From an uncultured Verrucomicrobia subdivision 3 bacterium (GTDB taxonomy: Bacteria > Verrucomicrobiota > Verrucomicrobiia > Limisphaerales > UBA11358): a stretch of 64,000 nt of DNA. Of the stretch, positions 10,476 to 37,582 are shown in pieces. The stretch spans positions 4,514 through 68,513 of the forward strand of contig CAIKKJ010000091.1 of NCBI GenBank assembly GCA_903827955.1. The letters are read 5' to 3'. Made by a program: the position numbers and the translations under genes. The notes under the pieces are model-generated. The model had not been told where the DNA came from and searched no databases. It saw only the letters and a program-made list of their open reading frames with translations. Positions within the stretch are counted from its first letter, which is position 1. The number at the start of each line of letters is the position of its first letter.

Positions 10476-10476
10476 G

Positions 10477-10875
10477 TCATTTTCCTTTGATGATTTTTTG
10501 AGCGAGTTCGAGAATTTCTGATTGTTTCAACCCCGCTTCCGCCGCTTCCTGCGCGGCTTCGCGGAAAAGTTCCTGCGCGACGTTAAGCTTGGCTTCGCGG
10601 CTGCGGTCATGGCCAAGGTCGGCGACGAACGTGCCGAGTCCCTGCCGGCGATAAATGATTCCTTCGCGCTCCAACTCTTCGTAGGCGCGTTTGACGGTGA
10701 TGACGCTGACGAGCAAATCCTCCGCGAGTTGGCGGAAGGAGGGCAGCGACGCACCGGGCTTGAGCCGACCTTCGCTGACCTCGCGCTTGAGGCCGTCCAC
10801 GATCTGCTGGTAGAGCGTGCCGGGCGCGGCAGGCGAAATCGGGCCGAGGATGAGTTTTTTATTTGCCGGAGCCAT
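10477..10875 (-). CDS. GntR family transcriptional regulator, short YtrA-like subfamily
   Basis: 132 aa. Winged-HTH sequence LPSFRQLAEDLLVSVITVKRAYEELEREGIIYRRQGLGTFV with only a short helical C-terminus. Ends 1 nt before the ABC ATPase start. Confidence 0.85.
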   Translation of the reverse strand: MAPANKKLILGPISPAAPGTLYQQIVDGLKREVSEGRLKPGASLPSFRQLAEDLLVSVITVKRAYEELEREGIIYRRQGLGTFVADLGHDRSREAKLNVAQELFREAAQEAAEAGLKQSEILELAQKIIKGK

Positions 10876-10965
10876 TTGTTACTACTGTGTATAACAGATA
10901 TAAACAGCATGTCAACCAGAAAAATTACATTCTGTTTTCCGGGTGGGTTATTAGACTGCTGCGAA

Positions 10966-11646
10966 ATGAATTCTGTCATCATCGTCGCCGCCGGCAAAGG
11001 CACGCGCATGGGCGCGAAAGTGGACAAGCTCTGGCTTGAAGTCGCTGGGCGGCCAGTAGTCGCGCACACTTGGAAACAATTCAACGATGCGTCGTGCGTG
11101 GATGAAATCATCCTCGTTGTGCGCGACGGGATGCAGGCTGAATTTCAAAAGCTGGCGGCGGAATATAAATTTCAAAAACCATTCAAGCTCGTGGTTGGCG
11201 GTGCGGAACGGCAGGACTCCGTGTGGAATGGTCTCGAGGCGATTTCGGCCAAAACTCAAATCGTTGCCATCCAGGACGCGGCGCGGCCGTGCACCACGGA
11301 AGAAGTGATCGCGGACACGATTGCCGCTGCGCGAGAAACGGGTGCAGCGGTTGCGGCGCAGCAAGTGACGGACACAATCAAGGAGACGGCGGATGGAAAA
11401 ATTATTTCTCGCACGGTGGACCGCTCGAAATTGTGGTCGGTGCAGACGCCGCAGACATTCCGCGTGGCCGTCATCCGCGAGGCCATCGCCACGGCGCGGT
11501 CGAAAAATTTGATTCTCACTGATGACACGGCGGCGTGCGAACTCATCGGCCAGCCGGTGCGATTGGTGAAAAGTGCTTCGCCAAATCCGAAGGTGACGGT
11601 GCCGGCGGATTTGCCGTTCGTTGAAAGTCTGTTGAAAAAAGCCTGA
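10966..11646 (+). CDS. ispD: 2-C-methyl-D-erythritol 4-phosphate cytidylyltransferase
   Basis: MNSVIIVAAGKGTRMGAKVDKLWLEV...VAIQDAARP...VQTPQTF. The longer ORF from 10522 overlaps the gntR gene and is rejected. Confidence 0.9.
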   Translation: MNSVIIVAAGKGTRMGAKVDKLWLEVAGRPVVAHTWKQFNDASCVDEIILVVRDGMQAEFQKLAAEYKFQKPFKLVVGGAERQDSVWNGLEAISAKTQIVAIQDAARPCTTEEVIADTIAAARETGAAVAAQQVTDTIKETADGKIISRTVDRSKLWSVQTPQTFRVAVIREAIATARSKNLILTDDTAACELIGQPVRLVKSASPNPKVTVPADLPFVESLLKKA

Positions 11647-19566: not shown

Positions 19567-21186
19567 ATGTTCCCGCGATTTTTTTCCATGCCTGCTCGCG
19601 CCACGGTGATGGCGGTTGTGCTTGAGGTGCTCCCCTGTTGTTTTTTTGCCCGCGCGGAAGCCGCTTTGCCCATGCGTGAAATCTCGGCGGACTTCAATGA
19701 AACCAAAGGTCTGCACAGTGAAGTCTGGCGCGAATGCATCGGCGCGGGACGAGCCAACGAGGGTTTGCGTGCCGACTGGCAACGGCAGTTGAAGTTGGTT
19801 CAGGATGAAATCGGTTTCCGCGAAATCCGCTTTCACGGTTTGCTGCACGACGATATGGGCGTTTATTCGGAGACGAAAACCGGACAACCCATTCACAACT
19901 GGCAATATATTGACGAGCTTTACGATTCGCTGCTCGTGCTGAAGCTGCGGCCGTTGGTCGAGTTTGGCTTCATGCCGAACGCGCTTGCGGTCGGAAAGAA
20001 AAAAATGTTCTGGTGGAACGGCAACGTCACGCCGCCGAAGTCCTACGAGAAATGGGACAGCTTGATTGAAGCTCTGGTGCGTCACTGGACGGAGCGTTAC
20101 GGTGCGGATGAGGTGGCGAACTGGAATTTTGAAATCTGGAACGAGCCGAACTATCCCGGCTTCTGGGGGCCGCGCGATCCCAAGCAGCCGAAGGCAGAAT
20201 ACTTCGAGCTTTACGCGCACACGGCGGCGGCGGTGAAAAAAGTGAACGCCACCTATCACGTCGGCGGCCCGGCAGGCGCGGGGCCGGACTGGGTGGCGGA
20301 TCAAATCAATTTTTGCGTGTCTAATTCCGTGCCGCTTGATTTCATCAGCTACCACGCCTACGGCCTCGGCGACGGCCCGTCGGGCTTGGATCAATTCGGC
20401 GACCGCCTGTTGTATCTTTCCCCCAATTTACATTCGCCTGCCGACATCGCGAACAGCCAGCGCGGCGTAATTGACGGTTCTCCACTACCGCATTTGCCGA
20501 TTCATGTCACGGAATGGAGTAGTTCGTATTCGCCGCGCGACCCGGTGCATGATTCCTATTTTTCCGCGCCCTACATCCTGGAGCAGTTGAAGCGCACGGA
20601 AAACGGCATCGCCTCGATGTCCTACTGGGTGTTCACCGACATCTTCGAGGAGAACGGCCCGCCGCCGACGCCGTTTCATGGCGGCTTCGGGCTGCTGAAT
20701 TTGCAAGGCATCCGCAAACCCGCGTTTTTCGCGTATCGTTTTTTGAATCAGCTTGGCGCGACGGAATTGAAAAATGCCGACCCGCAATCGTGGGTCTGCC
20801 GCGATGAAAACGGCGGCGTGCAGGTTCTATGTTGGAACCTGACGCATTCGGCTGGTGGCAACATTTCCAACCAGGAATTCTTCCGCAAAATCCAGCCCGC
20901 TGGCGATGCTGCGACGGTGCAGTTGAAGCTGGCGCATCTGCCGCCCGGGAATTATCACGCGCAATTTTTTCGCGTCGGTTTTGAGAAAAACGACGCCTAC
21001 ACTGCCTACTTGAAAATGGGCGCACCTTCACAGTTAAGCCGTGAGCAGGTGCGCGAGCTGGCCGGGATTGCTGCCGGCGCGCCGGAAATGGAAAGAGATT
21101 TCTCGGTGGACGATTCGGGAAATTTCTCGACAGCGCTCACGCTCCGCACCAACGATGTCTGGCTCGTGAAGCTGGCTCTAAAATAA
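19567..21186 (+). CDS. GH39 family glycoside hydrolase (beta-xylosidase-like)
   Basis: Signal peptide present. REIRFHGLLHDDMGVY, acid/base motif NFEIWNEPNY, nucleophile motif IHVTEWSSSY. Confidence 0.85.
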   Translation: MFPRFFSMPARATVMAVVLEVLPCCFFARAEAALPMREISADFNETKGLHSEVWRECIGAGRANEGLRADWQRQLKLVQDEIGFREIRFHGLLHDDMGVYSETKTGQPIHNWQYIDELYDSLLVLKLRPLVEFGFMPNALAVGKKKMFWWNGNVTPPKSYEKWDSLIEALVRHWTERYGADEVANWNFEIWNEPNYPGFWGPRDPKQPKAEYFELYAHTAAAVKKVNATYHVGGPAGAGPDWVADQINFCVSNSVPLDFISYHAYGLGDGPSGLDQFGDRLLYLSPNLHSPADIANSQRGVIDGSPLPHLPIHVTEWSSSYSPRDPVHDSYFSAPYILEQLKRTENGIASMSYWVFTDIFEENGPPPTPFHGGFGLLNLQGIRKPAFFAYRFLNQLGATELKNADPQSWVCRDENGGVQVLCWNLTHSAGGNISNQEFFRKIQPAGDAATVQLKLAHLPPGNYHAQFFRVGFEKNDAYTAYLKMGAPSQLSREQVRELAGIAAGAPEMERDFSVDDSGNFSTALTLRTNDVWLVKLALK

Positions 21187-21191
21187 TTTTT

Positions 21192-23540
21192 ATGGCGAAG
21201 TTGCAAAACAAAAATTTAAACCCACGAAAATTGGCGCTGCCAGCCTACAAGAATCCTGCGTTGCCCATTGCGCGCCGCGTCAAAGATTTGCTGTCCCGCA
21301 TGACACTGGAGGAAAAAGCCGCGCAGATGGTGAGCATCTGGCAGGAAAAGGCGGCGAAAATTCAGGATGCGGACGGACGGTTTGATCCGGTCAAAGCGAA
21401 GAAACATTTCGGCCACGGCCACGGCATCGGGCAGATTGCGCGGCCCAGCGACGCAGGCAGCAAGCCGAGCGACGCCGGCGTCGGCAGCACGCCGCGCCAG
21501 ACAGCGGAGCTGACGAACGCCATCCAGAAATTTTTCATCCAGGAGTCGCGGCTGGGCATCCCCATTTTTTTTCATGAAGAATGTCTGCACGGCCACGCCG
21601 CCATCGGTGCGACAAGTTTTTCGCAGCCCATCGGTCTGGGCGCGACATTCAATCCGGCGCTGGTGGAAAAACTTTACGCTGTCGCGGCGGCGGAGACCCG
21701 CGTGCGCGGCGCGCATCAGGCGCTCACGCCGGTCGTGGACGTGGCGCGCGATCCGCGCTGGGGCCGCGTGGAAGAAACTTTTGGCGAAGATCCGTTTCTC
21801 GTCACGCAACTCGGCCTCGCGGCCGTGCGTGGTTTCCAGGGCGACAACCAATTTCAGAACCGCCGCCATGTGCTTGCGACGCTGAAACATTTTGCCGCGC
21901 ACGGCCAGCCGGAGTCCGGCCAGAACTGCGCCCCGGCGAACGTCTCGCTACGTGTGCTGCGCGAGACGTTCTTGCAGCCGTTCAAGGAATGCATCCAGCA
22001 GGCGGGCGCGGCGAGCGTGATGGCGAGCTACAACGAGATTGACGGCGTGCCGTCGCACGCGAGCGAATGGCTGCTGCGCGATGTATTGCGGAAAGAATGG
22101 GGGTTCAAAGGTTTTGTCGTTTCAGACTACTACGCAATTTGGGAGCTGGGCCATCGTCCCGATACGCACGGACATTTTCTCGCGGCGGACAAAAAGGAAT
22201 CGTGCGCGCTCGCGGTGCGGGCGGGTGTGAACATCGAATTCCCCGAACCTGACTGCTATCTCCACCTCGTCGAACTCGTCCGCGAAAAAGTTTTGCAGGA
22301 ATCGCAGCTCAATGATCTGGTCGCGCCGATGTTGCATTGGAAATTTCAGATGGGGCTGTTTGAAAATCCGTTCGTGGATCCTGACGAGGCCGGGCGAGTG
22401 GTGAACTGCGCCGCGCATCGCGAGCTGGCTTTGCAAGGTGCGCGCGAAACCATCACGCTGCTGAAGAATAAAAAAAATCTGCTGCCGCTCAATCCAAAAA
22501 ATCTGAAAACCATTGCGGTTATTGGCCCGAATGCCGACCGCGAAATGCTCGGCGGTTACAGCGGCAAGCCGGCGCAGTTTAAAACGGTGCTGGCGGGCAT
22601 TCGCGCCCGTGTCGGCGAAACGGTAAAAGTGACTTATGCCGAAGGTTGCAAGATAACCGTCGGCGGTTCGTGGAACATGGATGCCGTCACGCTGCCGTCG
22701 GCGGTGGAAGACCGTCGTCAAATTGCTCAAGCGGTGAAGGCGGCGGAGCAGGCGGACGCCGTCGTGGTCTGCATCGGCGGCAATGAACAGACCTCGCGCG
22801 AGGCGTGGTCGCTCGCGCATCAGGGCGACCGCACGACGCTTGATTTGATTGGCCGCCAGCAGGAATTGGTGGACGCGCTGCTTGCCACCGGCAAGCCGGT
22901 CATTGCCGTGTTGTTTAACGGCAGCCCGCTCGCCGTCACCTCGCTGGCGCAAAACGCCCCGGCGATTTTGGAGTGCTGGTATCTCGGTCAGGAATGCGGC
23001 CAGGCCGTCGCGGAAGTTTTGTTCGGCGACGTGAACCCCGGCGGCAAATTGCCCATCAGCGTGCCGCGTTCCGTCGGGCATCTGCCGGCGTTTTACAATT
23101 ACAAACCTTCGGCGCGGCGCGGCTATTTGTTCGATGACGTTTCACCGCTGTATCCGTTCGGCTTCGGTTTGAGCTACACGACCTTCGCGTTTAAAAACGT
23201 GCGGTTGAAGAAGAAAAAAATCCGCGCGAAAGATTCGACGCAGGTTTTAGTGGACGTGACGAACACTGGCAAGCGCGCGGGAACGGAAGTGGTGCAAATG
23301 TATGTCCGCGACTGTGTGAGTTCTGTGACGCGGCCGGTGAAAGAGTTGAAGCGCTTCCAAAAAATTTCGCTCTTGCCGGGTGAAACCAAAACCGTGGCAC
23401 TCGACATCTCGCCGGATTCGCTGGCGTTTTATGATATCAACATGAAATACATCGTGGAGTCCGGCGACTTTGAAATCATGGTCGGCAGCTCGTCGCGAAA
23501 CGAAGATTTGCAGAAGGTAATTTTGACGGTGACAAAATAA
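21192..23540 (+). CDS. GH3 family beta-glucosidase/beta-xylosidase
   Basis: MTLEEKAAQM, KHFAAHGQPESGQN, nucleophile region GFVVSDY, plus C-terminal alpha/beta and FnIII-like domains (FGFGLSYTTF). Confidence 0.95.
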   Translation: MAKLQNKNLNPRKLALPAYKNPALPIARRVKDLLSRMTLEEKAAQMVSIWQEKAAKIQDADGRFDPVKAKKHFGHGHGIGQIARPSDAGSKPSDAGVGSTPRQTAELTNAIQKFFIQESRLGIPIFFHEECLHGHAAIGATSFSQPIGLGATFNPALVEKLYAVAAAETRVRGAHQALTPVVDVARDPRWGRVEETFGEDPFLVTQLGLAAVRGFQGDNQFQNRRHVLATLKHFAAHGQPESGQNCAPANVSLRVLRETFLQPFKECIQQAGAASVMASYNEIDGVPSHASEWLLRDVLRKEWGFKGFVVSDYYAIWELGHRPDTHGHFLAADKKESCALAVRAGVNIEFPEPDCYLHLVELVREKVLQESQLNDLVAPMLHWKFQMGLFENPFVDPDEAGRVVNCAAHRELALQGARETITLLKNKKNLLPLNPKNLKTIAVIGPNADREMLGGYSGKPAQFKTVLAGIRARVGETVKVTYAEGCKITVGGSWNMDAVTLPSAVEDRRQIAQAVKAAEQADAVVVCIGGNEQTSREAWSLAHQGDRTTLDLIGRQQELVDALLATGKPVIAVLFNGSPLAVTSLAQNAPAILECWYLGQECGQAVAEVLFGDVNPGGKLPISVPRSVGHLPAFYNYKPSARRGYLFDDVSPLYPFGFGLSYTTFAFKNVRLKKKKIRAKDSTQVLVDVTNTGKRAGTEVVQMYVRDCVSSVTRPVKELKRFQKISLLPGETKTVALDISPDSLAFYDINMKYIVESGDFEIMVGSSSRNEDLQKVILTVTK

Positions 23541-23541
23541 A

Positions 23542-25047
23542 ATGAACAATCCCCAAAAACTCTCGTTCGTCGAAAAGGCCGGCTACAGTTGCGCCGATGC
23601 TGGTGCGAATTTCGTCTTCATGACGATGATTTTGTTCCAGACGAATTTTTACACCGACGTCTTTGGTCTGACCGCGAGCGCCGCCGCCGCGATTTTGCTG
23701 TGGCCGCGCCTGTGGGATGCGGTGGCGGATCCCATCGTGGGAATTCTTGCCGACCGCACGGACACGCGCTGGGGGAAATTTCGTCCGTGGGTTTTGTTCA
23801 CCGCCGTGCCGTGGGCGGTGGTCATGGTGCTGGCCTACACCACGCCCAAAGGCTGGAGCATGGGCGCGCTCATCGCCTACGCTGCCATCACGAACACGCT
23901 GCTCATGTCCATCTATTCGATGAACAACATGCCCTACGCCGCGTTGGGCGGCGTGATGACGGGCGATATCAACGAGCGCACGAAATTAAATTCCTTCCGC
24001 TTCATCGCCGTGAACGCCGCGCAATTCATCGTCGGCGGTTTCACGCTGCCGCTGGTCGCCAAATTTGCCGCCGGTTCCGACCGGCAGCACGGCTGGCAGA
24101 TGACGATGACCATTTGGGCAATGCTGTGTCTGGTTTTATTTGTCATCACGTTTGCGACCACGAAGGAACGCATCAAGCCGACCACGCGGGAAAAATCCTC
24201 GCCGAAACAGGACTTCACCGACCTGCTGAAAAACAATCCGTGGAAGGTGATGTTCGCGATGACGCTGGTCCACTTTGCTATCCTCTCGTTCCGGGGCGGC
24301 GCGCTTTACAATTATTACCACCACTTTGCCGACCGCGCGGCGATGTTTGACTTCGTGCAGAAGCTCGGCCTCGTCGTCCCGGCGGGCGCATCGGCCAACG
24401 GCCTGATGGAAACGCTGGGCTACATCGTCCACGGTGACCGGGCGGAACTGGCGAATTCAAATGTTGCGGATGTGTTCAATAGCATCATCAATATGCTTGG
24501 CACGGCGGTGACTATCATCGTCATTCTGCTGTCCGCACCGCTGGCGCAAAAATACGGGAAGAAAGCCGTGGCCATCGCCGGCTTTGCGCTCTCCACTGTC
24601 AATGCGCTCGGGTTTTATCTGCTCGCGCCGACGAACACCACGGGCATGGTGCTGTTCACGGTGGTCGGTTCGATTGTTTATGCGCCGACGATTCCGCTGG
24701 TGTGGGCGATTTTTGCGGACGTGGCAGATTATTCCGAATGGCGGACGGGGCGGCGGTTCACCGGCATGGTGTTTGCGACCATCGGCTTTGCGCTGAAATC
24801 CGGCCTCGCGCTCGGCTCGGCGGGTTTCCTCTGGATCATGGCGGGAATTTTCAATTACGACACGAAACTGCCGGACGCGCTGTCGGCAGTGCAAGGTTAT
24901 CGTGCGTGCAGCGGTTTGGTGGTGGGAGTAATGTTCGGCATCTGCACGCTGCTGCTGCTGACGTATCAGTTAAACAAGCGGGTCACGATTCAAATGGCGG
25001 ACGAACTTGCGGAACGCCGTAAAAAGTTTGCGGCGCAGGCAAATTAA
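23542..25047 (+). CDS. Glycoside-pentoside-hexuronide (GPH) family cation symporter
   Basis: 501 aa, about 12 TM. N-terminal LSFVEKAGYSCADAGANFVF and DAVADPIVGILADRTDTRWGKFRPW are typical of MelB/XylP/YicJ-type transporters. Confidence 0.85.
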   Translation: MNNPQKLSFVEKAGYSCADAGANFVFMTMILFQTNFYTDVFGLTASAAAAILLWPRLWDAVADPIVGILADRTDTRWGKFRPWVLFTAVPWAVVMVLAYTTPKGWSMGALIAYAAITNTLLMSIYSMNNMPYAALGGVMTGDINERTKLNSFRFIAVNAAQFIVGGFTLPLVAKFAAGSDRQHGWQMTMTIWAMLCLVLFVITFATTKERIKPTTREKSSPKQDFTDLLKNNPWKVMFAMTLVHFAILSFRGGALYNYYHHFADRAAMFDFVQKLGLVVPAGASANGLMETLGYIVHGDRAELANSNVADVFNSIINMLGTAVTIIVILLSAPLAQKYGKKAVAIAGFALSTVNALGFYLLAPTNTTGMVLFTVVGSIVYAPTIPLVWAIFADVADYSEWRTGRRFTGMVFATIGFALKSGLALGSAGFLWIMAGIFNYDTKLPDALSAVQGYRACSGLVVGVMFGICTLLLLTYQLNKRVTIQMADELAERRKKFAAQAN

Positions 25048-25054
25048 AGGACTT

Positions 25055-26170
25055 ATGAAAAATATTTTTATGCTGGGCGGCCTTTGGTTGGGACTGGTTT
25101 TGCCGGCCAGTGCAGACGCTACATCATTGACCTTGAAGGAGGTGTTCAAGGACGCATTTCTCGTCGGGGCAGCCATCAATCGCGCGCAGATTTTTGAGGA
25201 GGACGCTCGCGGCGTGTCCATCATCAAGGAGCAATTCAACGCCATCAGTCCGGAAAATATTTTGAAATGGGGGCTCATTCACCCATTGCCCGGCCAGTAT
25301 GATTTTGAACCGGCCGACCGCTATGTTCAATTTGGCGAGTCCAATAAAATGTTCGTCGTCGGGCACACGCTGATCTGGCACAGCCAGACGCCGGCTTGGG
25401 TTTTTCAGGATGATCAAGGCCAGCCGCTGACGCGTGAGGCCTTGCTGGCGCGGATGCATGACCATATCGCCACGGTCGTCGGCCGTTACAAAGGTCGCGT
25501 AAAGGGCTGGGACGTGGTCAACGAGGCGGTGGAGGAGAATGGCCGGCTGCGCCAGACACCGTGGCTGAAAATCATCGGTGAGGATTATCTGGTGAAGGCC
25601 TATGAGTTCGCGCACGAGGCGGATCCGCAGGCGGAGCTTTATTACAACGACTATTCACTCGAAAATTCCGCCAAGCGCGCCGGAGCCATTGAACTGGTGA
25701 AAAAGTTGCAGGCGGCAGGGGTGCAGCTGACCGGCGTGGGGTTGCAAGGACATTACAAACTGTCTTCGCCCTCCGTGCGGCAGGTAGATGAAACCATTTC
25801 TGATTTTGCTAAGCTGGGTGTGAAAGTGATGATTACCGAATTAGACGTAGACGTGCTGCCCTCAGCCTCCCGTTCGATGAGCGCCGACGTCACGCGGCGG
25901 GAAAAATCCGGCGCGCGGATGAACCCGTTCACCAACGGCCTGCCGGACGAAGTGCAGCAAAAACTGGCCGCGCGTTATGGGGAATTGTTCGCGGTCTTTC
26001 TCAAGCATCACGGCACGGTGGCGCGGGTGACGTTTTGGGGCGTGACGGATGCCGACTCGTGGCTGAACGACTGGCCGGTCTTCGGCCGCACCAGTCATCC
26101 GCTGTTGTTTGACCGCGCAGGCCGGAGGAAACCGGCATTCGATGCCATTGTGCGCGGCCCTAAAACTTAA
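25055..26170 (+). CDS. GH10 endo-1,4-beta-xylanase
   Basis: Signal peptide MKNIFMLGGLWLGLVLPASA. GHTLIWHSQTPAW, acid/base motif WDVVNEAV, nucleophile motif MITELDV. Confidence 0.95.
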   Translation: MKNIFMLGGLWLGLVLPASADATSLTLKEVFKDAFLVGAAINRAQIFEEDARGVSIIKEQFNAISPENILKWGLIHPLPGQYDFEPADRYVQFGESNKMFVVGHTLIWHSQTPAWVFQDDQGQPLTREALLARMHDHIATVVGRYKGRVKGWDVVNEAVEENGRLRQTPWLKIIGEDYLVKAYEFAHEADPQAELYYNDYSLENSAKRAGAIELVKKLQAAGVQLTGVGLQGHYKLSSPSVRQVDETISDFAKLGVKVMITELDVDVLPSASRSMSADVTRREKSGARMNPFTNGLPDEVQQKLAARYGELFAVFLKHHGTVARVTFWGVTDADSWLNDWPVFGRTSHPLLFDRAGRRKPAFDAIVRGPKT

Positions 26171-27692: not shown

Positions 27693-27792
27693 GCTTGAAA
27701 ATTAACAGCAAAGGAACTAAAAAACAAAGTTTCAAAACCGCCGGTTGAAATTATTCTTTGTTCCTTCGTTCCTTTGTTGTTTAACTTTCGCC

Positions 27793-28206
27793 ATGAATTA
27801 CTGGCTCGTGAAATCTGAACCCGAAGCGTATTCGTGGTCGCAATTTTTGAAGGACGGCAAAGCCGCGTGGACCGGCGTCCGCAATTTTCAAGCTAGAAAC
27901 AACCTGCGTGCGATGAAAAAAGGCGATGCGGTTTTTTTCTACCACAGTGTCAGCGACAAACAGGTTGTCGGTCTCGCCAAAGTCGCAAAGGAATTCTATC
28001 CCGACGCCACCGCCGAGGAAGGCGACTGGTCGTGCGTGGATCTCGCGCCGGAAAAAACTTTCGCCCAGCCCGTCACGCTGGAGGTCATCAAAACCGATGC
28101 GGTGCTGAAAGAAATGCCGCTCGTCCGGCAGTCGCGCCTGTCCGTCACGCCGCTCACGCTGGCGCAGGCTGACCGGTTGCTCAAGCTCGCGTCCGCCAAG
28201 CCTTGA
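27793..28206 (+). CDS. EVE (PUA-like) domain protein
   Basis: MNYWLVKSEPEAYSWSQF...WTGVRNFQARNNLRAMKKGDAVFFYHS...VVGLAKV is the canonical stand-alone EVE pattern. Confidence 0.85.
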   Translation: MNYWLVKSEPEAYSWSQFLKDGKAAWTGVRNFQARNNLRAMKKGDAVFFYHSVSDKQVVGLAKVAKEFYPDATAEEGDWSCVDLAPEKTFAQPVTLEVIKTDAVLKEMPLVRQSRLSVTPLTLAQADRLLKLASAKP

Positions 28207-28214
28207 ACTACGCG

Positions 28215-29084
28215 ATGCCTGGCGATTATCAACTGGCCACGCTCGCGAACGGCGGCAAGACGCTTTTTTCCGCCAGCTACGGCGAGAAGATGCATCCCGG
28301 CCTCGGTCCGGCGGCGGAGGCGGAACTGCTTTACGTCCGCCAGTTGCAAATTTGCGAACGGCTGAAAAATAATTCCGGGGAGTTTGTCATCTGGGACATC
28401 GGCCTTGGCGGTGCGGCGAACGCCACGGCGGTCCTGCGCGCTACGAAAGAAATTCCAGGCACGCTTCGCCTCCTGAGTTTTGACAACACGGCTGAGCCGT
28501 TGGCGTTCGCCCTGAAAAATGCCAACGCGTTAAAATATTTGGACGGCTACGAAGAGCAAATTGAAAAATTACTGCGTTGGCCATGCATCGAATTTCAGAA
28601 CGGCGTTTCAAGCGTCCACTGGGAATTTTATGTGGAAGATTTTCCGGCTTGGTTGTCGGTCAGAGAACAGAGACCTAAAAAACTGGAGCCAAGTCCGCAC
28701 GCCATTTTTTACGACGCCTTTTCGCCCGCAAAAAATCCGGCGATGTGGACGTTGCCGGTGTTTGAAAATCTTTTCCGTGCGCTAGATTCCGCGCGGCCGT
28801 GCGCGCTCACGACGTATTCGCGCAGCACGCTGCTACGCGCCACGCTGCTGCTGGCGGGATTTTTCGTGGGGGCTGGCGGCGCCACCGGCATGAAGGAAGA
28901 AACCACTGTGGCGGCGAATGATTTGGGCCTCATCGCCGCGCCGCTTGGGCAACGCTGGCTGGAACGTGCGTTGCGTTCTGACAGCGCCGAGCCGCTGCGC
29001 GAACCGGTTTATACCCGCGCCAAACTCTCGTCGGCGACGATAGAAAAACTGCGGCAACATCCGCAGTTTAATTCGGGAATATAA
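28215..29084 (+). CDS. MnmC-N-terminal-like SAM-dependent methyltransferase (DUF752 / Methyltransf_30-like)
   Basis: IWDIGLGGAANA and FYDAFSPAKNPAMWT resemble the MnmC motif FLDGFAPAKNPDMW. A TTG at 28203 would overlap the EVE stop; the ATG is at 28215. Confidence 0.7.
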   Translation: MPGDYQLATLANGGKTLFSASYGEKMHPGLGPAAEAELLYVRQLQICERLKNNSGEFVIWDIGLGGAANATAVLRATKEIPGTLRLLSFDNTAEPLAFALKNANALKYLDGYEEQIEKLLRWPCIEFQNGVSSVHWEFYVEDFPAWLSVREQRPKKLEPSPHAIFYDAFSPAKNPAMWTLPVFENLFRALDSARPCALTTYSRSTLLRATLLLAGFFVGAGGATGMKEETTVAANDLGLIAAPLGQRWLERALRSDSAEPLREPVYTRAKLSSATIEKLRQHPQFNSGI

Positions 29085-29134
29085 GGCGTTGGTCGTATCC
29101 GCTGCGGGTGTTTTTCTGCCACGGTTGCATAATC

Positions 29135-29183
29135 TACATTTGTAAATAATGCGCTTGACAAAATTTACAATTGTAAAGATAGT
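29135..29183 (+). promoter_or_regulatory. Putative sigma70-type promoter with two BlaI/MecI-type TACA/TGTA operator dyads upstream of blaI
   Basis: Dyad 1 is TACATTTGTA (29135-29144). -35 TTGACA at 29155-29160. Dyad 2 is the perfect palindrome TTTACAATTGTAAA (29164-29177) filling the 17-nt spacer. -10-like GATAGT at 29178-29183. ATG at 29190. Confidence 0.6.
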
Positions 29184-29189
29184 CGCGCC

Positions 29190-29579
29190 ATGCCCGCACC
29201 GAATGTTGAACTCACTGAGTCTGAATGGTCCGTCATCAAGGCCGTCTGGGAAGCTGAACCCTGCACCGCACCCGCCATCCAGGAAAAACTGTTCAAGCCG
29301 ACCGGTTGGCATTATTCGACCGTCCGCACGTTGATGGATCGCATGGTCACCAAGGGCGTGCTGCGGGCGAAGAAGCAGGGGAAGCTGACCATCTACCAGT
29401 CCGCCGTCACCCGCGCACAGGCGCAGCACGGTGAACTTTTTTACGCGCTCAAGCACGCCTTCAACGGCGCGCTTACGCCGATGGTGCAGTGTCTTTTGGA
29501 GAGCAAAGACTTGAACGCTGCGGAACTGGCGGAACTGGAATTGCTCATCAAGGCGAAGAAAAAATCCGCGAAGAAATAA
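29190..29579 (+). CDS. blaI: BlaI/MecI/CopY family transcriptional repressor
   Basis: 129 aa. LTESEWSVIKAVWEAEPCTAPAIQEKL...WHYSTVRTLMDRMVTKGVLRAKKQGKLTIYQSAV is a winged helix of the penicillinase-repressor family. Confidence 0.9.
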   Translation: MPAPNVELTESEWSVIKAVWEAEPCTAPAIQEKLFKPTGWHYSTVRTLMDRMVTKGVLRAKKQGKLTIYQSAVTRAQAQHGELFYALKHAFNGALTPMVQCLLESKDLNAAELAELELLIKAKKKSAKK

Positions 29580-29597
29580 TCCACCAAAAGGCGCGAC

Positions 29598-32285
29598 ATG
29601 AACTCCTTTATCGAAACTTTGAACCAGTGGGGTGGAAATTTTTTGAACTTCGCGTGGCCGATGTTCTGGCAATCGAGCTTTCTCATCGCGTTATTATTGG
29701 CGTTGGATTTTTTGCTGGCGCGGAAAATTCGCGCGGCCGTGCGATATGCGTTGTGGTTGGCAGTGCTGGTGAAATTGCTGCTGCCGCCCGCGCTGGCGCT
29801 CCCCACAGGTGTCGCGTGGTGGCTGATTCCCGCGCCGCCCGTGGCGAAAGCGTTGCCGGTAAAACATTTCACCGTCACTTACGACGACGCACCCGCGCAA
29901 CCTTACGTCGCGCCGCTGACGGTGGCCATGCCCGCACCGCCGGTGCAATTGGAATTGGCGGGTTGGGCGTTGCTCGCCTCCGTCGTCATCAGCGTTGGAT
30001 TGCTGGTGTGGCTGGCTTTGCGCTGGTGGCAAGTCGCATGGATGGTGCGCAGGGCGACGGCGGCGGAAGAATTTTCTGAAACGCTGGACGAGGCCTTGCG
30101 CTTGGCTGGTGTTCGCGTCGCGCGTTTGAAAATCGTTGAAGGCAAGATGTCGCCCGCGGTTTGCGGGTTGTTGCAGCCGGTGATTTTGCTGCCGCGCGAA
30201 TTGGCGGAAAAATTATCGCCCGCACAGCTTCGCGCCGTGCTGCTGCATGAAATTTTTCACCTGCGGCGCAAGGATGTCTGGGTGAACTGCGCGCAGGCGT
30301 TGCTGCAAATTTTTTACTGGTGGCATCCGTTGCTGTGGTTTGCGAATGCGCACGTCCGCCGCGTGCGCGAGGAAGCCGTGGACGACGCGGTGATGCTGGC
30401 ACTGCGCGACGACGCGGACGGCTACGCGCCCACATTGTTGGAAGTGGCGAAGCTGGCGTTCCGGCGTCCGCTGCTGAGCATCGGCCTCGTGGGCATCATG
30501 GAATCGCGGAGCGCGTTGCGGCAACGGATTGAGCGGTTGGTGGATTTCCGCGCGCCACGTCAGGCAGGGCTGACGCTAGCGTCGCTGTGCGGGGTTTTTG
30601 TTTTCAGCGCGGTGGCCTTGCCGATGGGCGAAGCGCCGCATGTTGCAGAGGGCAAAGGAATTTCATCTCCGGCTATTTCAACTCCGCCAACGGTCGCGCC
30701 CGGCACAAATACGCCACAGGTTTTGATCCAGGCGGAATTTTACCGGATGCAGTTTGCCGATTTTCAACGGGTCGCTTCCGCCGCCAAGTTGGGAGCGGTC
30801 AAGCCGGGTGGAATTGAAAATTTCAAGCAGTTCGTTCAAGGTTTGAAAGCCGCCGGCTTCAAGCCGTTTTCCCGGCCACGGGTGGTGACGAACAACGGCA
30901 TTCGCGCTCAATTCTATGTTGGCAATGAGACGAACTCGGTTGAATTCGACTGCCAGCCTTTCGTGACCAATGGGCTAATCAATCTGACAAGCACCATTAT
31001 CAAGGTTAGTTCGGCGACGGAAAACTCCGCATACATCCATTTTGCCGACGAAATCACTTTGGACAATGGTGGAGGCCATGTGTTTTCCATAAAACCAGTA
31101 GACAGAACGAACGGAAGCAACATCGTTGTGGCGGCCATAAGCGCAGAAATCGTCACCAACAAATCACAATTCCAGCAACGCTTGCAGACCATCATCCAGC
31201 GGGCGAACGATACGAATTCTGTCGTGAGTGGAAACGGCACAAACTTGTTTTTCACGCGGACATACAAAGTGGACACGCGAAGTTTCACCACCAGCTTGAA
31301 GCAGGCGGAAGCGGAGTTGGATGACAAGACAAATTCGGCGGCGGCAGTTTCAGCGGCGGTGCGGAAATTTTTTGCGTGGCTGGGCGTGGACTTGGAATTG
31401 CCCGCCGGCAAGACGATTTTTTACAATGACCGGAACGGGATGTTATTTGTGCGGGCGACGGAGAAGGATTTAGACTTCATTGAGCGGGTCATCCAGACGC
31501 TTAATTACGCGCCGCCGCAAATTCACATCAAGACGCGGTTTGTGGAAGTGCCGAAGGGAACAGTCGCGGATTTCACCAGCCTGCTCAATGCGTCCAACGC
31601 GGCAGCGGAAAGTTTCTCGGGAGTGCTCAACCCGGCGAACGCGCGGAAGGTTTATCGTTCACTGACGGAGCAAAAAAAATCTGAAATTTGGGGCGAGCCG
31701 GAAGTGATCACGTTGAGCGGGCGCCAATGCCAGATGCGGGCAACGCAAGTGCTCACGGTGGTCACCAACTTTGTGTATCAAGAGAGCATCACGAACAACG
31801 CGGGCGCGGTAGTTCCTCAAATAGGAACGTTCGAGACCGGCCCGGTGGTGGATGTCGTTCCGCACGTCTTGGCCGACGGTTACACCATCAATTTGGCGGT
31901 GACAACAACGTTGACGGAATTTTTGGGCTATGCCAGTCCGCCAGATGTGCCGAACGTCGTGAAAAATGAAAACCGGGTTCAGTTGCCAGTCGTTCTGCCG
32001 CGCTTCAACCAACGCCAGGTCACGGCGAATCTAAATTTGTGGGACAACCAGACGGCCGTGCTTGGCGGCATGAGTATAAAAAATATCATCAAAGACAAGA
32101 CGCCGGTGCTAGGCAGTGTGCCGTTGATGGGGAGGATGTTTCAAAGTGAGCACACGAACGAGACGGAAATTCTCGTCTTCGTCACCGCCACCATCGTTGA
32201 CCCAGCGGGCAATCGCGTCCACACGGAGGATGAATTGCCGTTTGCGCAAAAGGGCGTTCCGCCGCAGCCAATGCCTTCGAAGTAA
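29598..32285 (+). CDS. M56 (BlaR1-like) membrane metalloprotease fused to two tandem secretin-like domains
   Basis: 895 aa. N-terminal TM helices and zinc motif LLHEIFHLRRKD (HExxH, residues 217-221), then a further TM helix (GLTLASLCGVFVFSAVAL). C-terminal region carries PPQIHIKTRFVEV, VVDVVPHVLADGYTINL, RQVTANLNLWDNQTAVLGGM, TPVLGSVPLMGRMFQ and ILVFVTATIV (secretin hallmarks). A degenerate copy lies upstream (PQVLIQAEFYRM...RPRVVTNNGIRAQFYVGNE...NIVVAAISAEIV). Confidence 0.85.
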   Translation: MNSFIETLNQWGGNFLNFAWPMFWQSSFLIALLLALDFLLARKIRAAVRYALWLAVLVKLLLPPALALPTGVAWWLIPAPPVAKALPVKHFTVTYDDAPAQPYVAPLTVAMPAPPVQLELAGWALLASVVISVGLLVWLALRWWQVAWMVRRATAAEEFSETLDEALRLAGVRVARLKIVEGKMSPAVCGLLQPVILLPRELAEKLSPAQLRAVLLHEIFHLRRKDVWVNCAQALLQIFYWWHPLLWFANAHVRRVREEAVDDAVMLALRDDADGYAPTLLEVAKLAFRRPLLSIGLVGIMESRSALRQRIERLVDFRAPRQAGLTLASLCGVFVFSAVALPMGEAPHVAEGKGISSPAISTPPTVAPGTNTPQVLIQAEFYRMQFADFQRVASAAKLGAVKPGGIENFKQFVQGLKAAGFKPFSRPRVVTNNGIRAQFYVGNETNSVEFDCQPFVTNGLINLTSTIIKVSSATENSAYIHFADEITLDNGGGHVFSIKPVDRTNGSNIVVAAISAEIVTNKSQFQQRLQTIIQRANDTNSVVSGNGTNLFFTRTYKVDTRSFTTSLKQAEAELDDKTNSAAAVSAAVRKFFAWLGVDLELPAGKTIFYNDRNGMLFVRATEKDLDFIERVIQTLNYAPPQIHIKTRFVEVPKGTVADFTSLLNASNAAAESFSGVLNPANARKVYRSLTEQKKSEIWGEPEVITLSGRQCQMRATQVLTVVTNFVYQESITNNAGAVVPQIGTFETGPVVDVVPHVLADGYTINLAVTTTLTEFLGYASPPDVPNVVKNENRVQLPVVLPRFNQRQVTANLNLWDNQTAVLGGMSIKNIIKDKTPVLGSVPLMGRMFQSEHTNETEILVFVTATIVDPAGNRVHTEDELPFAQKGVPPQPMPSK

Positions 32286-32336: not shown

Positions 32337-33170
32337 TCAATGAGCTGTTTCCAAAATTTTTCCGAGAATCTTGCGGATGTCTTCGTTGTGCTGCTGCGAA
32401 GCGATCCCGAAGGCGTGGACGATATCCACCAGAAATGCGCCGTTCTCGCGGTTGAAATCGTAAAATACCGTCTCCTTGGATTTCGCCTTGGAAGGGGGGC
32501 GCGGGGAGCCGTCCATCGCGAGCAGTTCATCCATCGGCAGGCAGACGTATATCATCGCCTGATAACCGACGGCGCGTTGCTTTTGTTTGAGTTGGATTTG
32601 CACGGAGCCGTGCGGCGTGGTCTTGGTGAACTGCGGCAGCTTTTGCACTGCGCTTTGAAAACCATCCGCCGTGGTGTTGGTAGAAACTTCCACCTCCACG
32701 GCGCGGCTTTCTTCAAACGTTCCCGTGGAATTCTTTTTCAATAATTCCACCTCGTGCACCAATTCGTTGGTGGAAAGCAATCCCAGCCGCACCGCTTCAA
32801 AAATAATTTTGGAAAGTTCGTGGCCGTATTTCGTCTCGCCTTTGCGGGTGAATTTGATTTCGGGAACGACCGTGATGTCCTTCGGGTCGGGCGTGTCATA
32901 GCCGATCTGCCATTCAAGATAATGTTTTTTACCGAGTAAAACTTTTGACGGCGCGACGGGGAGTCCGAAACCGTCCAAAGATTTTTCCTTCACGCGCACC
33001 TTGCCAGTCACATCGGTGAGCGGCAGACGGACACGCACGGAGTTAGTCAGCGTCTCGATGCGGACGAGCTTATATTCCGCATCGGTGCTGAATGCATGCA
33101 GTGCGAACCCGCAAAAGATGATTGCGATGGTGATGGTTTTTCGCATAAAGCTTTTAGACAGCATCAACAA
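32337..33170 (-). CDS. Secreted hypothetical protein
   Basis: 277 aa with N-terminal signal peptide (KTITIAIIFCGFALHAFS). No recognisable domain. Visibly lower GC than its neighbours. Confidence 0.5.
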   Translation of the reverse strand: MLMLSKSFMRKTITIAIIFCGFALHAFSTDAEYKLVRIETLTNSVRVRLPLTDVTGKVRVKEKSLDGFGLPVAPSKVLLGKKHYLEWQIGYDTPDPKDITVVPEIKFTRKGETKYGHELSKIIFEAVRLGLLSTNELVHEVELLKKNSTGTFEESRAVEVEVSTNTTADGFQSAVQKLPQFTKTTPHGSVQIQLKQKQRAVGYQAMIYVCLPMDELLAMDGSPRPPSKAKSKETVFYDFNRENGAFLVDIVHAFGIASQQHNEDIRKILGKILETAH

Positions 33171-35876: not shown

Positions 35877-36851
35877 TTAATTCACCGCCACCGGCCAGCC
35901 GCTCGACCAGTCGATTTTGCCGATTGCCAGTCGGGAGCGGCCGCGCGTTTCGGCGTCGTAATAGTGATAACTGAACTGCGTCAAGCCGTTCGTGTTGCCG
36001 TCGTCCACGATGCCGATGTGGCCGGGGCCGATGAAGCGCCCGCTGCTGGCAAGAAAGGGCGAGCCGCCGCCGGTGGCGAGGTCGTTGCCGTCGCGGTCGC
36101 GATACGGGCCGGTGATTTTTTCGGCGCGGCCCACGCGGACTTCGTAGGTGCTGTCGGTTCCCTGGCAGCACTGGCCCCAGTTGACGAAGAGGTAATAAAA
36201 TTTTCCATGCCGCGTGAGACACGCGGCTTCGATGGAATGATTCCACGCGAGTTGGATTGGGGGTAAGTTGGTGTTCGCGCGCAGGCCGGTCTGCGGGTCG
36301 AGCTCGGTCAGAAAAATTCCTTTCCAATACGAACCAAACGCGAGCCAGAGTTTGCCGTCGGTGTCGAAAAACACGCTGGGGTCAATGGTGTTGAAGGGCA
36401 TCCCGTTCGTGGAGGCAATCACCGCGCCGACATCTTTCCAAGAATAATTTGTCGCTGTCACGTCCAGCGTTGGGGAGACGGCGAGACCGATGACGGAGAT
36501 TTGTTTCTGCCAAGTGGAGCAGGAGTAGTAGAGGAAAAATTTTCCGTTCACGCGCACCACGTCCGGCGCCCAGACGGTGCCGTCGAATGTGGGAACCCAA
36601 TGTTTCGTCCATGCGGGAACGGTGGCGAATATGGCATCGCCGTTCGTCCAGTGGATCAAGTCCGGCGACGATTTGGTGCGGATGCCCGGCCCGGTGTTGA
36701 AGCTAAAATAGTGTCCGTGATCTTTTTGAATGGTGGACGGGTCGTGGGAAAATGTCTGGCCTTCCAGATTCAGCGGCGTGAAATTAGTTTCCGCGCCACT
36801 CGCGGCCTTGGCTATGAACAAGGTGAGAGCGAGGAGAAATTTCATTGGCAT
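35877..36851 (-). CDS. GH43 family glycoside hydrolase (endo-arabinanase-like five-bladed propeller)
   Basis: Signal peptide MPMKFLLALTLFIAKAASG. HDPSTIQKDHGHYFSF, WAPDVVRVNGKFFLYYS, IDPSVFFDTDGKLWLAFGSYW and EAACLTRHGKFYYLF. The start ATG overlaps the upstream GT2 stop (TGATG). Confidence 0.85.
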   Translation of the reverse strand: MPMKFLLALTLFIAKAASGAETNFTPLNLEGQTFSHDPSTIQKDHGHYFSFNTGPGIRTKSSPDLIHWTNGDAIFATVPAWTKHWVPTFDGTVWAPDVVRVNGKFFLYYSCSTWQKQISVIGLAVSPTLDVTATNYSWKDVGAVIASTNGMPFNTIDPSVFFDTDGKLWLAFGSYWKGIFLTELDPQTGLRANTNLPPIQLAWNHSIEAACLTRHGKFYYLFVNWGQCCQGTDSTYEVRVGRAEKITGPYRDRDGNDLATGGGSPFLASSGRFIGPGHIGIVDDGNTNGLTQFSYHYYDAETRGRSRLAIGKIDWSSGWPVAVN

Positions 36852-37582
36852 CAATTTTTCTCGCGCGGAAAACGGCGGCAGCCGTTTTGTAGCAGGAGCC
36901 ACCAGACCATCCAGAACGCTTCGACGACGATGTGGCGCGATAGTTTGGACGTGCCTTCCACGCGGTCGGCAAACGTGATGGGCACTTCAGTGACGCGAAA
37001 GCCTTCGCGCCACAGGCGGTGCGTGAGTTCGATTTGGAAGCTGTAGCCGTTGGCACGCACGGCGTCGAGTTCGATGGCTTGCAGCGCGCGGCGGCGGAAA
37101 CATTTGTAGCCACCGGTCGGGTCGGTGAACGGCATTCCCGTGATAAGCCACACGTAAATGCCCGCGCAACGGCTCAAGAGCAGTCGCTTGAGCGGCCAGT
37201 TCAGCACGCGCACGCCGCCGGTGTAGCGCGAGCCGATGACAAGATCGTTTTGAGCGGCGGCTTTCAGGAAGTTGGCGATTTCATCCGGGTCGTGCGAAAA
37301 ATCGCAGTCCATCTCGAAGATGAATTCGTAATTTTTTTCCAGCGCCCATTGAAAGCCGGCGATGTAGGCGCGGCCAAGGCCGTTTTTTTCCGAGCGATGC
37401 AGGACGTTGATCTGCGGATGTTTTGCGGCGAGTTCGTCGGCGAGTTTGCCGGTGCCGTCGGGGGAATTGTCGTCCACCACCAGCACGTCCACGGCGACGG
37501 GCAGCGACAAAAGTTTCGCAGCCATGCGCGGGAGGTTGTCCCGTTCATTGTAGGTCGGCACGATGATGAGCGTCTGGTTCAT
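36851..37582 (-). CDS. GT2 polyprenol-phosphate mannosyltransferase (Dpm1/Ppm1-like)
   Basis: MNQTLIIVPTYNERDNL, VLVVDDNSPDGTG and EKNGLGRAYIAGF. The longer ORF from 37636 is probably not used. Confidence 0.85.
   Translation of the reverse strand: MNQTLIIVPTYNERDNLPRMAAKLLSLPVAVDVLVVDDNSPDGTGKLADELAAKHPQINVLHRSEKNGLGRAYIAGFQWALEKNYEFIFEMDCDFSHDPDEIANFLKAAAQNDLVIGSRYTGGVRVLNWPLKRLLLSRCAGIYVWLITGMPFTDPTGGYKCFRRRALQAIELDAVRANGYSFQIELTHRLWREGFRVTEVPITFADRVEGTSKLSRHIVVEAFWMVWWLLLQNGCRRFPREKN

Follow-up and report, generated by a model that had tools for sequence, protein, structure and literature searches.

What does a repressor-protease switch of the BlaI/BlaR family sense when secretin-like sequence stands in place of the penicillin-binding domain? 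The question is raised by two genes at positions 29190 to 32285 of a 64,000-nucleotide stretch of contig CAIKKJ010000091.1, from an uncultured Verrucomicrobia subdivision 3 bacterium (the whole stretch is referred to as the window). An initial annotation had described a 129-residue BlaI/MecI-type repressor and, 18 nt further on, an 895-residue open reading frame (ORF) with an M56 protease module at its N-terminus and two tandem secretin-like domains behind it. Both ORFs were recovered, and all of the peptide motifs that it had quoted were present in the order given. The gene pair is a variant of the BlaIR family whose domains are already annotated in databases, and it carries the M56 and BlaI family features that were examined. 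It belongs neither to the beta-lactam sensors nor to the CopY repressors, and it is no equivalog of the Amuc_1098 family of PilQ proteins. Its periplasmic part was traced to the PilQ secretin of the type IV pilus, and the operon appears to control itself through two operator boxes at its own promoter.

Repressor, protease and distribution of the fusion

The two genes and the features of the protease module are as follows.

29190-29579, plus strand: blaI, 129-residue winged-helix repressor of the BlaI/MecI/CopY family (ORF, Pfam, NCBIfam)
29598-32285, plus strand: M56-secretin fusion gene, 895 residues (ORF, Pfam, NCBIfam, homologues)
29598-30635, plus strand: M56 BlaR1-type protease module, residues 1-346, with four transmembrane (TM) helices (Pfam, hydropathy, profile match to 8EXP)
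30246-30260, plus strand: HEIFH zinc-binding motif, residues 217-221 (motif scan, conservation)
30369-30386, plus strand: EEAVDD, residues 258-263, ExxxD motif with the third zinc ligand (invariant in alignment)
30561-30635, plus strand: fourth TM helix (TM4), residues ~322-346, including A338-V-A340 / L-P-M-G344, a candidate signal-peptidase I site (hydropathy, conservation)

The repressor gene comes first, on the same strand as the fusion gene and separated from it by 18 nt. Its product matched Penicillinase_R (PF03965) in Pfam with E=1.2e-27 and 97 bits (cutoff 22.6). The NCBIfam cutoff for CopY_TcrY (TIGR02698) was missed, at 75.1 bits against 121.95, and no C-terminal CxCxxxxCxC metal site was found on reading the 129 residues, which contain just two isolated cysteines. 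BlaI was encoded directly 5' of the fused gene in 33 of 36 related loci. At 90% identity the BlaI cluster holds 184 members and that of the fusion protein 2, so the two partners evolve at very different rates.

The N-terminal part of the fusion protein, previously described as a BlaR1-like M56 module with TM helices and an HEIFH motif, matched Peptidase_M56 (PF05569) over residues 22-313 (E=3e-36, 125.6 bits, cutoff 31), with HEIFH at residue 217. Hydropathy analysis placed TM segments at approximately 22-45, 48-72, 118-145 and 322-346, with HEIFH between the third and fourth. The predicted topology is that of BlaR1, with the active site in a cytoplasmic loop between TM3 and TM4 and residues 347-895 outside the cytoplasm. 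The HExxH motif was intact in all 120 homologues among the matches listed, and H217, E218, H221 and E258-D263 were invariant in a 20-sequence alignment, E258-D263 being the stretch with the ExxxD motif defined for BlaR1 (bioRxiv 10.64898/2026.08.03.742534). A profile of the 20 sequences matched Staphylococcus aureus BlaR1 (8EXP) over the catalytic core with E=1.1e-3; this profile was needed to reach BlaR1, as phmmer of the M56 part against the PDB sequences gave no match. The best NCBIfam match of the N-terminus was blaR1_generic, yet at 101.4 bits it lay far under the equivalog cutoff of 400. The transpeptidase (penicillin-binding) domain PF00905 had no Pfam match in the fusion protein and a secretin domain was present, in agreement with the proposal that secretin-family modules have replaced the penicillin-binding sensor.

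TM4 has a positively charged n-region (R..PRK) followed by ~18 uncharged residues and then A-V-A. Across 117 homologues the three positions were conserved as A in 113, V in 108 and A in 116, and each of P, M and G in the following (L/V)-P-M-G was present in 117 of 117. The A-V-A followed by LPMG resembles a textbook signal-peptidase I site, at which cleavage might occur. The M56 part is apparently far more conserved than the periplasmic part, many homologues showing 60-76% identity over just ~39% of the query, a span equal to the length of the M56 region.

Fourteen contigs, which derive from several ENA samples, encode the identical 895-residue protein. When 5.8 billion proteins were searched, 1,117 of the 8,000 candidates scored were significant matches, and 120 of these were listed; nearly all of the 120 carried precomputed PF05569 and PF00263 matches, with lengths of 770-1,492 residues. 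Where named, the homologues came from metagenome-assembled genomes (MAGs) of Verrucomicrobiota, Verrucomicrobiae or Limisphaerales. Their annotation was either 'M56 family metallopeptidase' alone or a double COG name, and several JGI product names give both domains. In a library clustered at 50% identity, 1,817 representatives matched at E<=1e-30, the top 150 all scoring above 486 bits.

One genome per GTDB species was also scanned, giving 228 relatives, and the locus counts below are based on 80 of the 228 loci. These fell into two classes, ~44 fused genes and free secretins, nearly all from Verrucomicrobiota. Fused ORFs with a full secretin domain were found in 42 GTDB genomes, with at most one fused gene per assembly among the loci listed in this pattern-limited scan. 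The gene is conserved in Limisphaerales-type Verrucomicrobiota and is no one-off oddity. Some assemblies among L003-L082 and P0126 carry names that are likely MAG mislabels (Bifidobacteriaceae, Candidatus Sulfotelmatobacter, Acidoferrum, Aquilonibacter, Planctomycetaceae, Paceibacterota).

Modules A, N and S and their relation to PilQ

Three modules were delimited with query-built profiles in the ~550 residues predicted to be periplasmic.

30699-31172, plus strand: module A, residues 368-525, shortened secretin-derived domain (profiles, AlphaFold2 model, Foldseek)
31248-31553, plus strand: N domain, residues 551-652, Secretin_N-like, with a final strand PPQIHIKTRFVEV that leads into the secretin domain (profiles, model)
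31662-32213, plus strand: secretin domain (module S), residues 689-872 (Pfam, model, Foldseek, profile)
32100-32141, plus strand: hallmark secretin motif TPVLGSVPLMGRMF, residues 835-848 (motif scan; present in the window copy)
32199-32270, plus strand: C-terminal tail DPAGNRVHTEDELPFAQKGVPPQP, also found in the free PilQ secretins of the lineage

The secretin character of the C-terminus was upheld by both sequence and fold. Pfam Secretin (PF00263) matched residues 689-868 with E=7e-21 and 75 bits (cutoff 27.5), covering model positions 2-169 of 169. An AlphaFold2 monomer model of residues 545-895, comprising N and S (pLDDT 79, pTM 0.65), was searched with Foldseek, and the top 38 PDB matches were all secretins (BfpB, PilQ, GspD, InvG and pIV) with E from 1e-11 (BfpB) to 2e-5. 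TM-scores were low (~0.3), as is to be expected for the monomer of a protein that folds fully just in a ring. The sequence profile matched solved secretins in the PDB over positions ~600-883. The segment previously called an N-domain-like linker has strands alternating with helices in the model, and profile matches to PilQ, pIV and BfpB reach into it; its Pfam Secretin_N match, at residues 580-635, was weak (18.1 bits against a cutoff of 28.2).

The description of two tandem secretin-like domains held in part. The C-terminal copy is a full secretin domain and the upstream copy, module A, is a truncated remnant with no Pfam match. Alignment of module A with hhalign covered 27 columns of the C-terminal secretin profile, at the start of A, and 15 columns of the N-domain end. 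Both alignments were too short to settle homology, so the structure of module A was predicted. The model (pLDDT 87.7, pTM 0.79) gave pIV, InvG (three chains) and GspD as its top five Foldseek matches, with TM-scores of 0.3-0.47. The module A profile against the PDB matched pIV at a marginal E=0.027 in three collinear pieces that cover the start of the secretin domain, its 'PRI.T.SG' segment and its end. As modelled, module A is a secretin-derived domain cut down to ~150 residues and without the VPxLG motif. Among the fetched loci it was confined to M56-fused ORFs and one contig-edge fragment. All 120 homologues listed terminate in N-S and 100 of them have A; the extra N domains, partial secretin stretches, and tetratricopeptide repeat (TPR) and HEAT matches upstream of N-S differ between species.

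The free secretins of the scanned genomes are proteins of 740-990 residues with a Sec signal peptide, a TPR region (TPR Pfam matches in one example), N domains and S. They are encoded 3' of a PilM gene (PF11104 PilM_2, 5.9e-38) and other conserved membrane-protein genes, and on account of this position they were identified as the type IV pilus PilQ of the clade. Nine assemblies contributed one fused and one free secretin locus each. The fused secretin unit shares ~34-44% identity with the free secretins of the clade, and fused and free proteins have a common tail after the secretin domain, 'IVDPAGNRVH.DDELPFAQ..IP.QPP'. Because of this common tail, the fused secretin module is, on sequence comparison, a paralogue of PilQ and descended from it. 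The best NCBIfam match of the C-terminus was the Amuc_1098 type IV pilus family (NF042912), a partial match of 125 bits against an equivalog cutoff of 750. In a midpoint-rooted neighbour-joining tree of the secretin domains neither the fused nor the free group was monophyletic.

The free PilQ was itself found split into two adjacent genes on the same strand in 22 Verrucomicrobiota genomes, for example at 8345-10654 and 10670-11326 of locus L016 and at 8360-10657 and 10661-11329 of locus L039 (also L022, L041-L044, L055, L056, L060, L064, L066, L069-L072, L074, L076-L079 and L082). Gene 1, ~740-800 codons where complete, encodes the signal peptide, TPR region, N domains and the first ~45 secretin-domain positions. 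Gene 2, ~200 codons, begins with its own Met and Sec signal peptide and encodes the remainder of the secretin domain (Pfam Secretin positions 14-168, E=1.3e-26 in one example). As the stop codons and the gaps (3-18 nt) vary among genomes, the split is a conserved arrangement and no sequencing error.

Promoter, operators and neighbouring genes

The intergenic region 5' of blaI is 105 nt long and contains the following features.

29095-29111, plus strand: terminator-like hairpin and T-run after the upstream methyltransferase gene (consensus scan only)
29135-29144, plus strand: operator box 1, TACATTTGTA (TACAnnTGTA), directly 5' of the -35 hexamer (pattern scan, conservation)
29155-29160, plus strand: -35 hexamer TTGACA (GCTTGACA kept in 37 loci)
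29166-29175, plus strand: operator box 2, TACAATTGTA, within the 17-nt spacer (pattern scan, conservation)
29178-29183, plus strand: -10 hexamer GATAGT (consensus scan, conservation in 37 loci)

TACAnnTGTA is the classic operator consensus of BlaI, MecI and CopY. The dyads that had been pointed out at 29135-29177 proved to be two perfect copies of it. The 64-kb window contains no others, and the number expected in it is 0.07. Of 36 related loci, 35 have a box 56 nt ahead of the blaI ATG. The second box, 25 nt before the blaI start, is strict in 14 loci and mostly TACGnnTGTA in the others. The whole 70-nt promoter cassette is nearly identical base for base across 37 loci, and in all 37 the -10 hexamer stops ~6 nt before the blaI ATG, a spacing which implies that the blaI mRNA is probably leaderless or nearly so. 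The terminator-like hairpin may insulate the blaI promoter from upstream transcription.

Since the boxes lie at the operon's own promoter, are rare elsewhere and are conserved across loci, autoregulation is well supported, and the gene pair very probably forms an autoregulated BlaIR module. No other TACAnnTGTA boxes were present in 629 kb of flanks of the related loci. A search for further BlaI targets with strict and relaxed boxes over 1.36 Mb (window and loci) gave three relaxed, chance-like matches. The pilus loci lacked boxes, except for one box in L026, which was taken as a truncated fused locus. A metagenome scan with ATCTACANNTGTAAAGA gave 121 listed matches, of which 116 came from contigs of low GC (mean 0.38) and had no BlaI gene 3' of them; the remaining 5 lay on contigs of 55-61% GC and represented the same blaI promoter.

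Upstream of the blaI promoter, an EVE-domain gene (27745-28206, plus strand, E=2e-43) overlaps by 4 nt a Methyltransf_30 gene for an MnmC-like S-adenosylmethionine-dependent methyltransferase (28203-29084, plus strand). The two resemble a two-gene unit immediately 5' of the promoter. The 3' neighbours, a type II restriction-enzyme-like protein and an M16 peptidase, are encoded on the opposite strand. The former (32337-33170, minus strand; 277 residues; PADLOC REase_II 3.2e-24, Pfam R.Pab1 1e-13) adjoins the M56-secretin gene and is apparently an orphan nuclease, as no DNA methyltransferase was found among the scanned neighbours or the genes called within 10 kb. PADLOC gave no defence-system match for BlaI or the fusion protein. 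A xylan-type cluster of GH39, GH3, a major facilitator superfamily transporter and GH10 (19567-26170, plus strand) lies on one side and GH43 (35877-36902, minus strand) on the other, a layout typical of polysaccharide-degrading Verrucomicrobia; TACAnnTGTA boxes are absent in front of these genes. No functional link to the window neighbours is drawn.

These neighbours did not recur beside the fused gene in other genomes, where peroxiredoxin and aconitase are usual (42 fused loci). An AhpC/TSA peroxiredoxin gene was located 5' of blaI in L003, L006, L010, L013, L017, L024, L027, L028, L030, L031, L047, L058, L067 and L068, and an aconitase gene 3' of the M56-secretin gene in L004, L006, L012, L013, L017, L020, L023, L024, L027, L028, L030, L031, L033, L037, L040, L046, L058 and L075, with peroxiredoxin, blaI, M56-secretin and aconitase all on the same strand. 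A CDP-alcohol phosphatidyltransferase-like gene was the third recurrent neighbour among the 42 loci, and all three are absent from the window. They were considered as operon partners and rejected, the arrangement being read as synteny of orthologues; the synteny with peroxiredoxin and aconitase may nevertheless reflect a redox or iron link.

Proposed signalling through the secretin unit and comparison with known systems

We lean towards reading the gene pair as an autoregulated proteolytic switch of the BlaI/BlaR family that takes its input from a secretin unit of PilQ origin, in place of a penicillin-binding domain, and that links both membranes. How strongly we lean already allows for doubt about true insertion into the outer membrane. 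In such a switch, BlaI dimers would bind both TACAnnTGTA boxes of the sigma-70-type promoter, the one next to the -35 as well as the one within the spacer, and would thereby repress a probably leaderless blaI-blaR transcript. The inner-membrane protease, with four helices and a predicted cytoplasmic HEIFH/ExxxD zinc site, would hold ~550 residues in the periplasm beyond TM4. Most likely the terminal secretin unit, by itself or together with PilQ, would oligomerise in or at the outer membrane, and the protein would thereby bridge the two membranes. A change in the unit, whether in assembly, gating, occupancy or through envelope damage, could then be relayed via TM4 to activate the protease. By analogy with BlaR1/BlaI, the active protease would cleave BlaI and derepress the operon.

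The retention of the N-S unit and the PilQ-type tail in every homologue argues that the secretin unit still has a secretin-like role there, alone or with PilQ. That the signal passes through the secretin module is taken to be probable; that the module forms a true outer-membrane ring is plausible and somewhat doubtful. Taken to its full extent, the proposal would have one polypeptide cross the whole envelope, with an outer-membrane PilQ-type ring tethered subunit by subunit to inner-membrane M56 proteases. Assembly, gating or occupancy of the ring (by pilus, DNA, phage or secreted polymer) would then be turned directly into repressor cleavage. We consider this unlikely.

Several observations weigh against a membrane-linking switch. 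A ring in which each of 12-15 subunits carries a tethered protease is geometrically awkward, and the S. aureus BlaR1 protease is reportedly dimeric in published cryo-EM work. Cleavage by signal peptidase at the invariant A-V-A / LPMG, which follows the short hydrophobic TM4, could set the secretin free. No type II secretion, type III secretion or type IV pilus machinery genes were among those called within 10 kb of the window copy, and no targets beyond the operon itself were found in the window, the flanks, the pilus loci or the matches listed. The hallmark P.LG..P..G..F was present in 33 of 33 free PilQ proteins against 8 of 42 fused GTDB genes and 33 of the 120 homologues listed, and within-group divergence of the S domain was 0.565 for fused against 0.318 for free PilQ proteins. 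Motif loss and divergence appear to point to relaxed or changed constraints on the fused S domain and not to a conserved pore; they suit a sensor, or a surface under diversifying pressure. The initial annotation had found a secretin tethered to an inner-membrane protease topologically paradoxical, a paradox that may soften given the candidate cleavage site and the loss of the hallmark motif in most members. Any of the three roles that it had put forward, an envelope-spanning sensor, a monitor of secretin or pilus assembly and a ligand sensor without a pore, may apply.

The alternative that survives best, itself unlikely in our estimate, is a sensor without a pore, in which the secretin modules would stay periplasmic, tethered to the inner membrane, and bind a ligand or protein, the fold having been recruited as a sensor scaffold and forming no channel. 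The hallmark motif is gone in ~75-80% of fused homologues and in none of the 33 free PilQ proteins, the fused domains are fast-evolving, and a heavily reduced secretin-like domain, module A, is tolerated in the lineage. The periplasmic architecture ahead of N-S is highly variable, as would be expected of a sensor, and M56 proteins take many different C-terminal sensor domains (PMC13492132). Against a pore-less sensor, the window copy retains the motif and matches nearly the whole Pfam Secretin model, the terminal N-S and PilQ-type tail were present in every homologue examined, and BfpB, a true secretin, is also degenerate at the motif region of the alignment, making motif loss compatible with a pore.

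Distinctly less probable is the release of the secretin. TM4 would act as an internal signal peptide, signal peptidase I would cut after A340, and a 555-residue secretin would be freed to the outer membrane, the M56 protease staying behind in the inner membrane without a sensor. On this view the fusion would ensure that a second, inducible secretin is expressed together with its regulator. Sensor-less BlaR proteins exist (bioRxiv 10.64898/2026.08.03.742534). The charged n-region, the ~18 uncharged residues and the near-invariant A(-3) V A(-1) before L/V-P-M-G in the 117 homologues fit a cleavable signal. The split PilQ in 22 genomes, whose second gene has its own signal peptide, indicates that parts of secretins are exported separately in the lineage, and the sole regulated target found is the operon itself. 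An invariant PMG after the putative cut is, however, unusual for a cleavage site and better fits a structural motif. A similar 'LMGQ' follows TM4 in S. aureus BlaR1, which is not known to be cleaved at that place. Internal signal-anchor helices are seldom cleaved naturally, and conservation of the fusion would have no obvious reason if its parts separated.

The two remaining alternatives can be dismissed: a frameshift or misassembly joining separate M56 and secretin genes, which the initial annotation had named as a possible flaw, was not seen and is ruled out by the identical protein on 14 contigs, the same module order in the 120 homologues listed and the fused genes of 42 GTDB genomes, and a canonical beta-lactam sensor for a beta-lactamase or penicillin-binding protein (PBP) is suggested by the family names BlaI and BlaR1 alone and contradicted by the missing transpeptidase/PBP domain, the low blaR1_generic score and the lack of any beta-lactamase or PBP gene called within 10 kb.

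No published description or test of an M56-secretin fusion was found in searches of a literature library, and the initial annotation knew of no characterised example. The fusion is conserved in Verrucomicrobiota, with both domains named in databases. The closest known systems are BlaR1/BlaI and MecR1/MecI of S. aureus (BlaR1 structures 8EXP-8EXT); switches of this type control resistance to penicillin in staphylococci. They share with the present pair a winged-helix repressor and a four-TM M56 zinc protease with HExxH and ExxxD, and in both a TACA/TGTA dyad operator likewise overlaps the promoter of an autoregulated operon. In contrast to them, the present pair has secretin-family modules in the place of the extracytoplasmic penicillin-binding (transpeptidase) sensor, blaI precedes blaR with no divergent resistance gene, and the host is diderm, so that the sensor faces the periplasm and outer membrane.

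A recent survey covered ~15,000 M56 proteins in 254 architectures, of which ~6% had a beta-lactam-binding domain and 96% lay near a BlaI (PMC13492132, 2026). CenIR of Clostridioides difficile (PMC13492132), PvmSR of Pseudomonas aeruginosa (bioRxiv 10.64898/2026.08.03.742534) and mycobacterial BlaIR combine BlaI with an M56 protein without such a domain and belong to the majority class of BlaR homologues (PMC13492132); P. aeruginosa and mycobacteria are also where BlaR proteins without a sensor have been studied (bioRxiv 10.64898/2026.08.03.742534). Their sensor regions are short, unstructured or missing, whereas here a well-folded module of 550 residues and three domains, derived from a pilus secretin, is present. 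Nine architectures had at least 100 InterPro entries (no domain, TonB_C, TP, M23, Plug, CarbopepD_reg_2, DUF4825, Amidase_3 and others), and Secretin was not among them (PMC13492132). The fusions of M56 with TonB_C or the TonB-receptor Plug (PMC13492132) resemble the present protein in that M56 is joined to a domain which usually acts at the outer membrane or together with it, a combination suggestive of signalling across the envelope; the partner domain differs, a secretin normally being a 12-15-mer channel.

Verrucomicrobiota PilQ (Amuc_1098 family) has an N domain, to which the Secretin_N-like domain of the fusion protein would correspond, and a secretin domain with the same DPAGNRVH..DELPFA..P.QPP tail. 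Unlike PilQ, the fusion protein lacks an N-terminal signal peptide and TPR region, is encoded outside the pilM operon, and has an M56 protease and the extra module A. CopY/TcrY (cop box TACAnnTGTA) share the repressor fold and operator consensus with the present BlaI, which differs in having no C-terminal metal site and in its partner, a protease and not a copper ATPase.

BlaIR-type switches form a large family, mostly with unknown signals (PMC13492132); here the sensor is recognisable and its ancestor, PilQ, is known. If the secretin unit reaches the outer membrane, the system would be a minimal model for how outer-membrane events alter gene expression; if it stays short of it, the secretin fold would have been reused as a periplasmic sensor. 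The system apparently has one detected copy per genome in abundant, poorly studied polysaccharide-degrading Verrucomicrobia of soil and freshwater, and its operator, promoter, catalytic residues and candidate processing site are located to the base. We know of no other inner-membrane-anchored secretin and, to our knowledge, a one-protein trans-envelope signalling device of such design has no described counterpart. FecA-FecR-FecI signalling would be comparable in that an event at the outer membrane leads, by way of the periplasm, to regulated inner-membrane proteolysis and a change in transcription, but it employs three separate proteins, with a sigma/anti-sigma pair and site-1/site-2 proteases. 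Here, by comparison, a single polypeptide would both sense the event and cleave the repressor.

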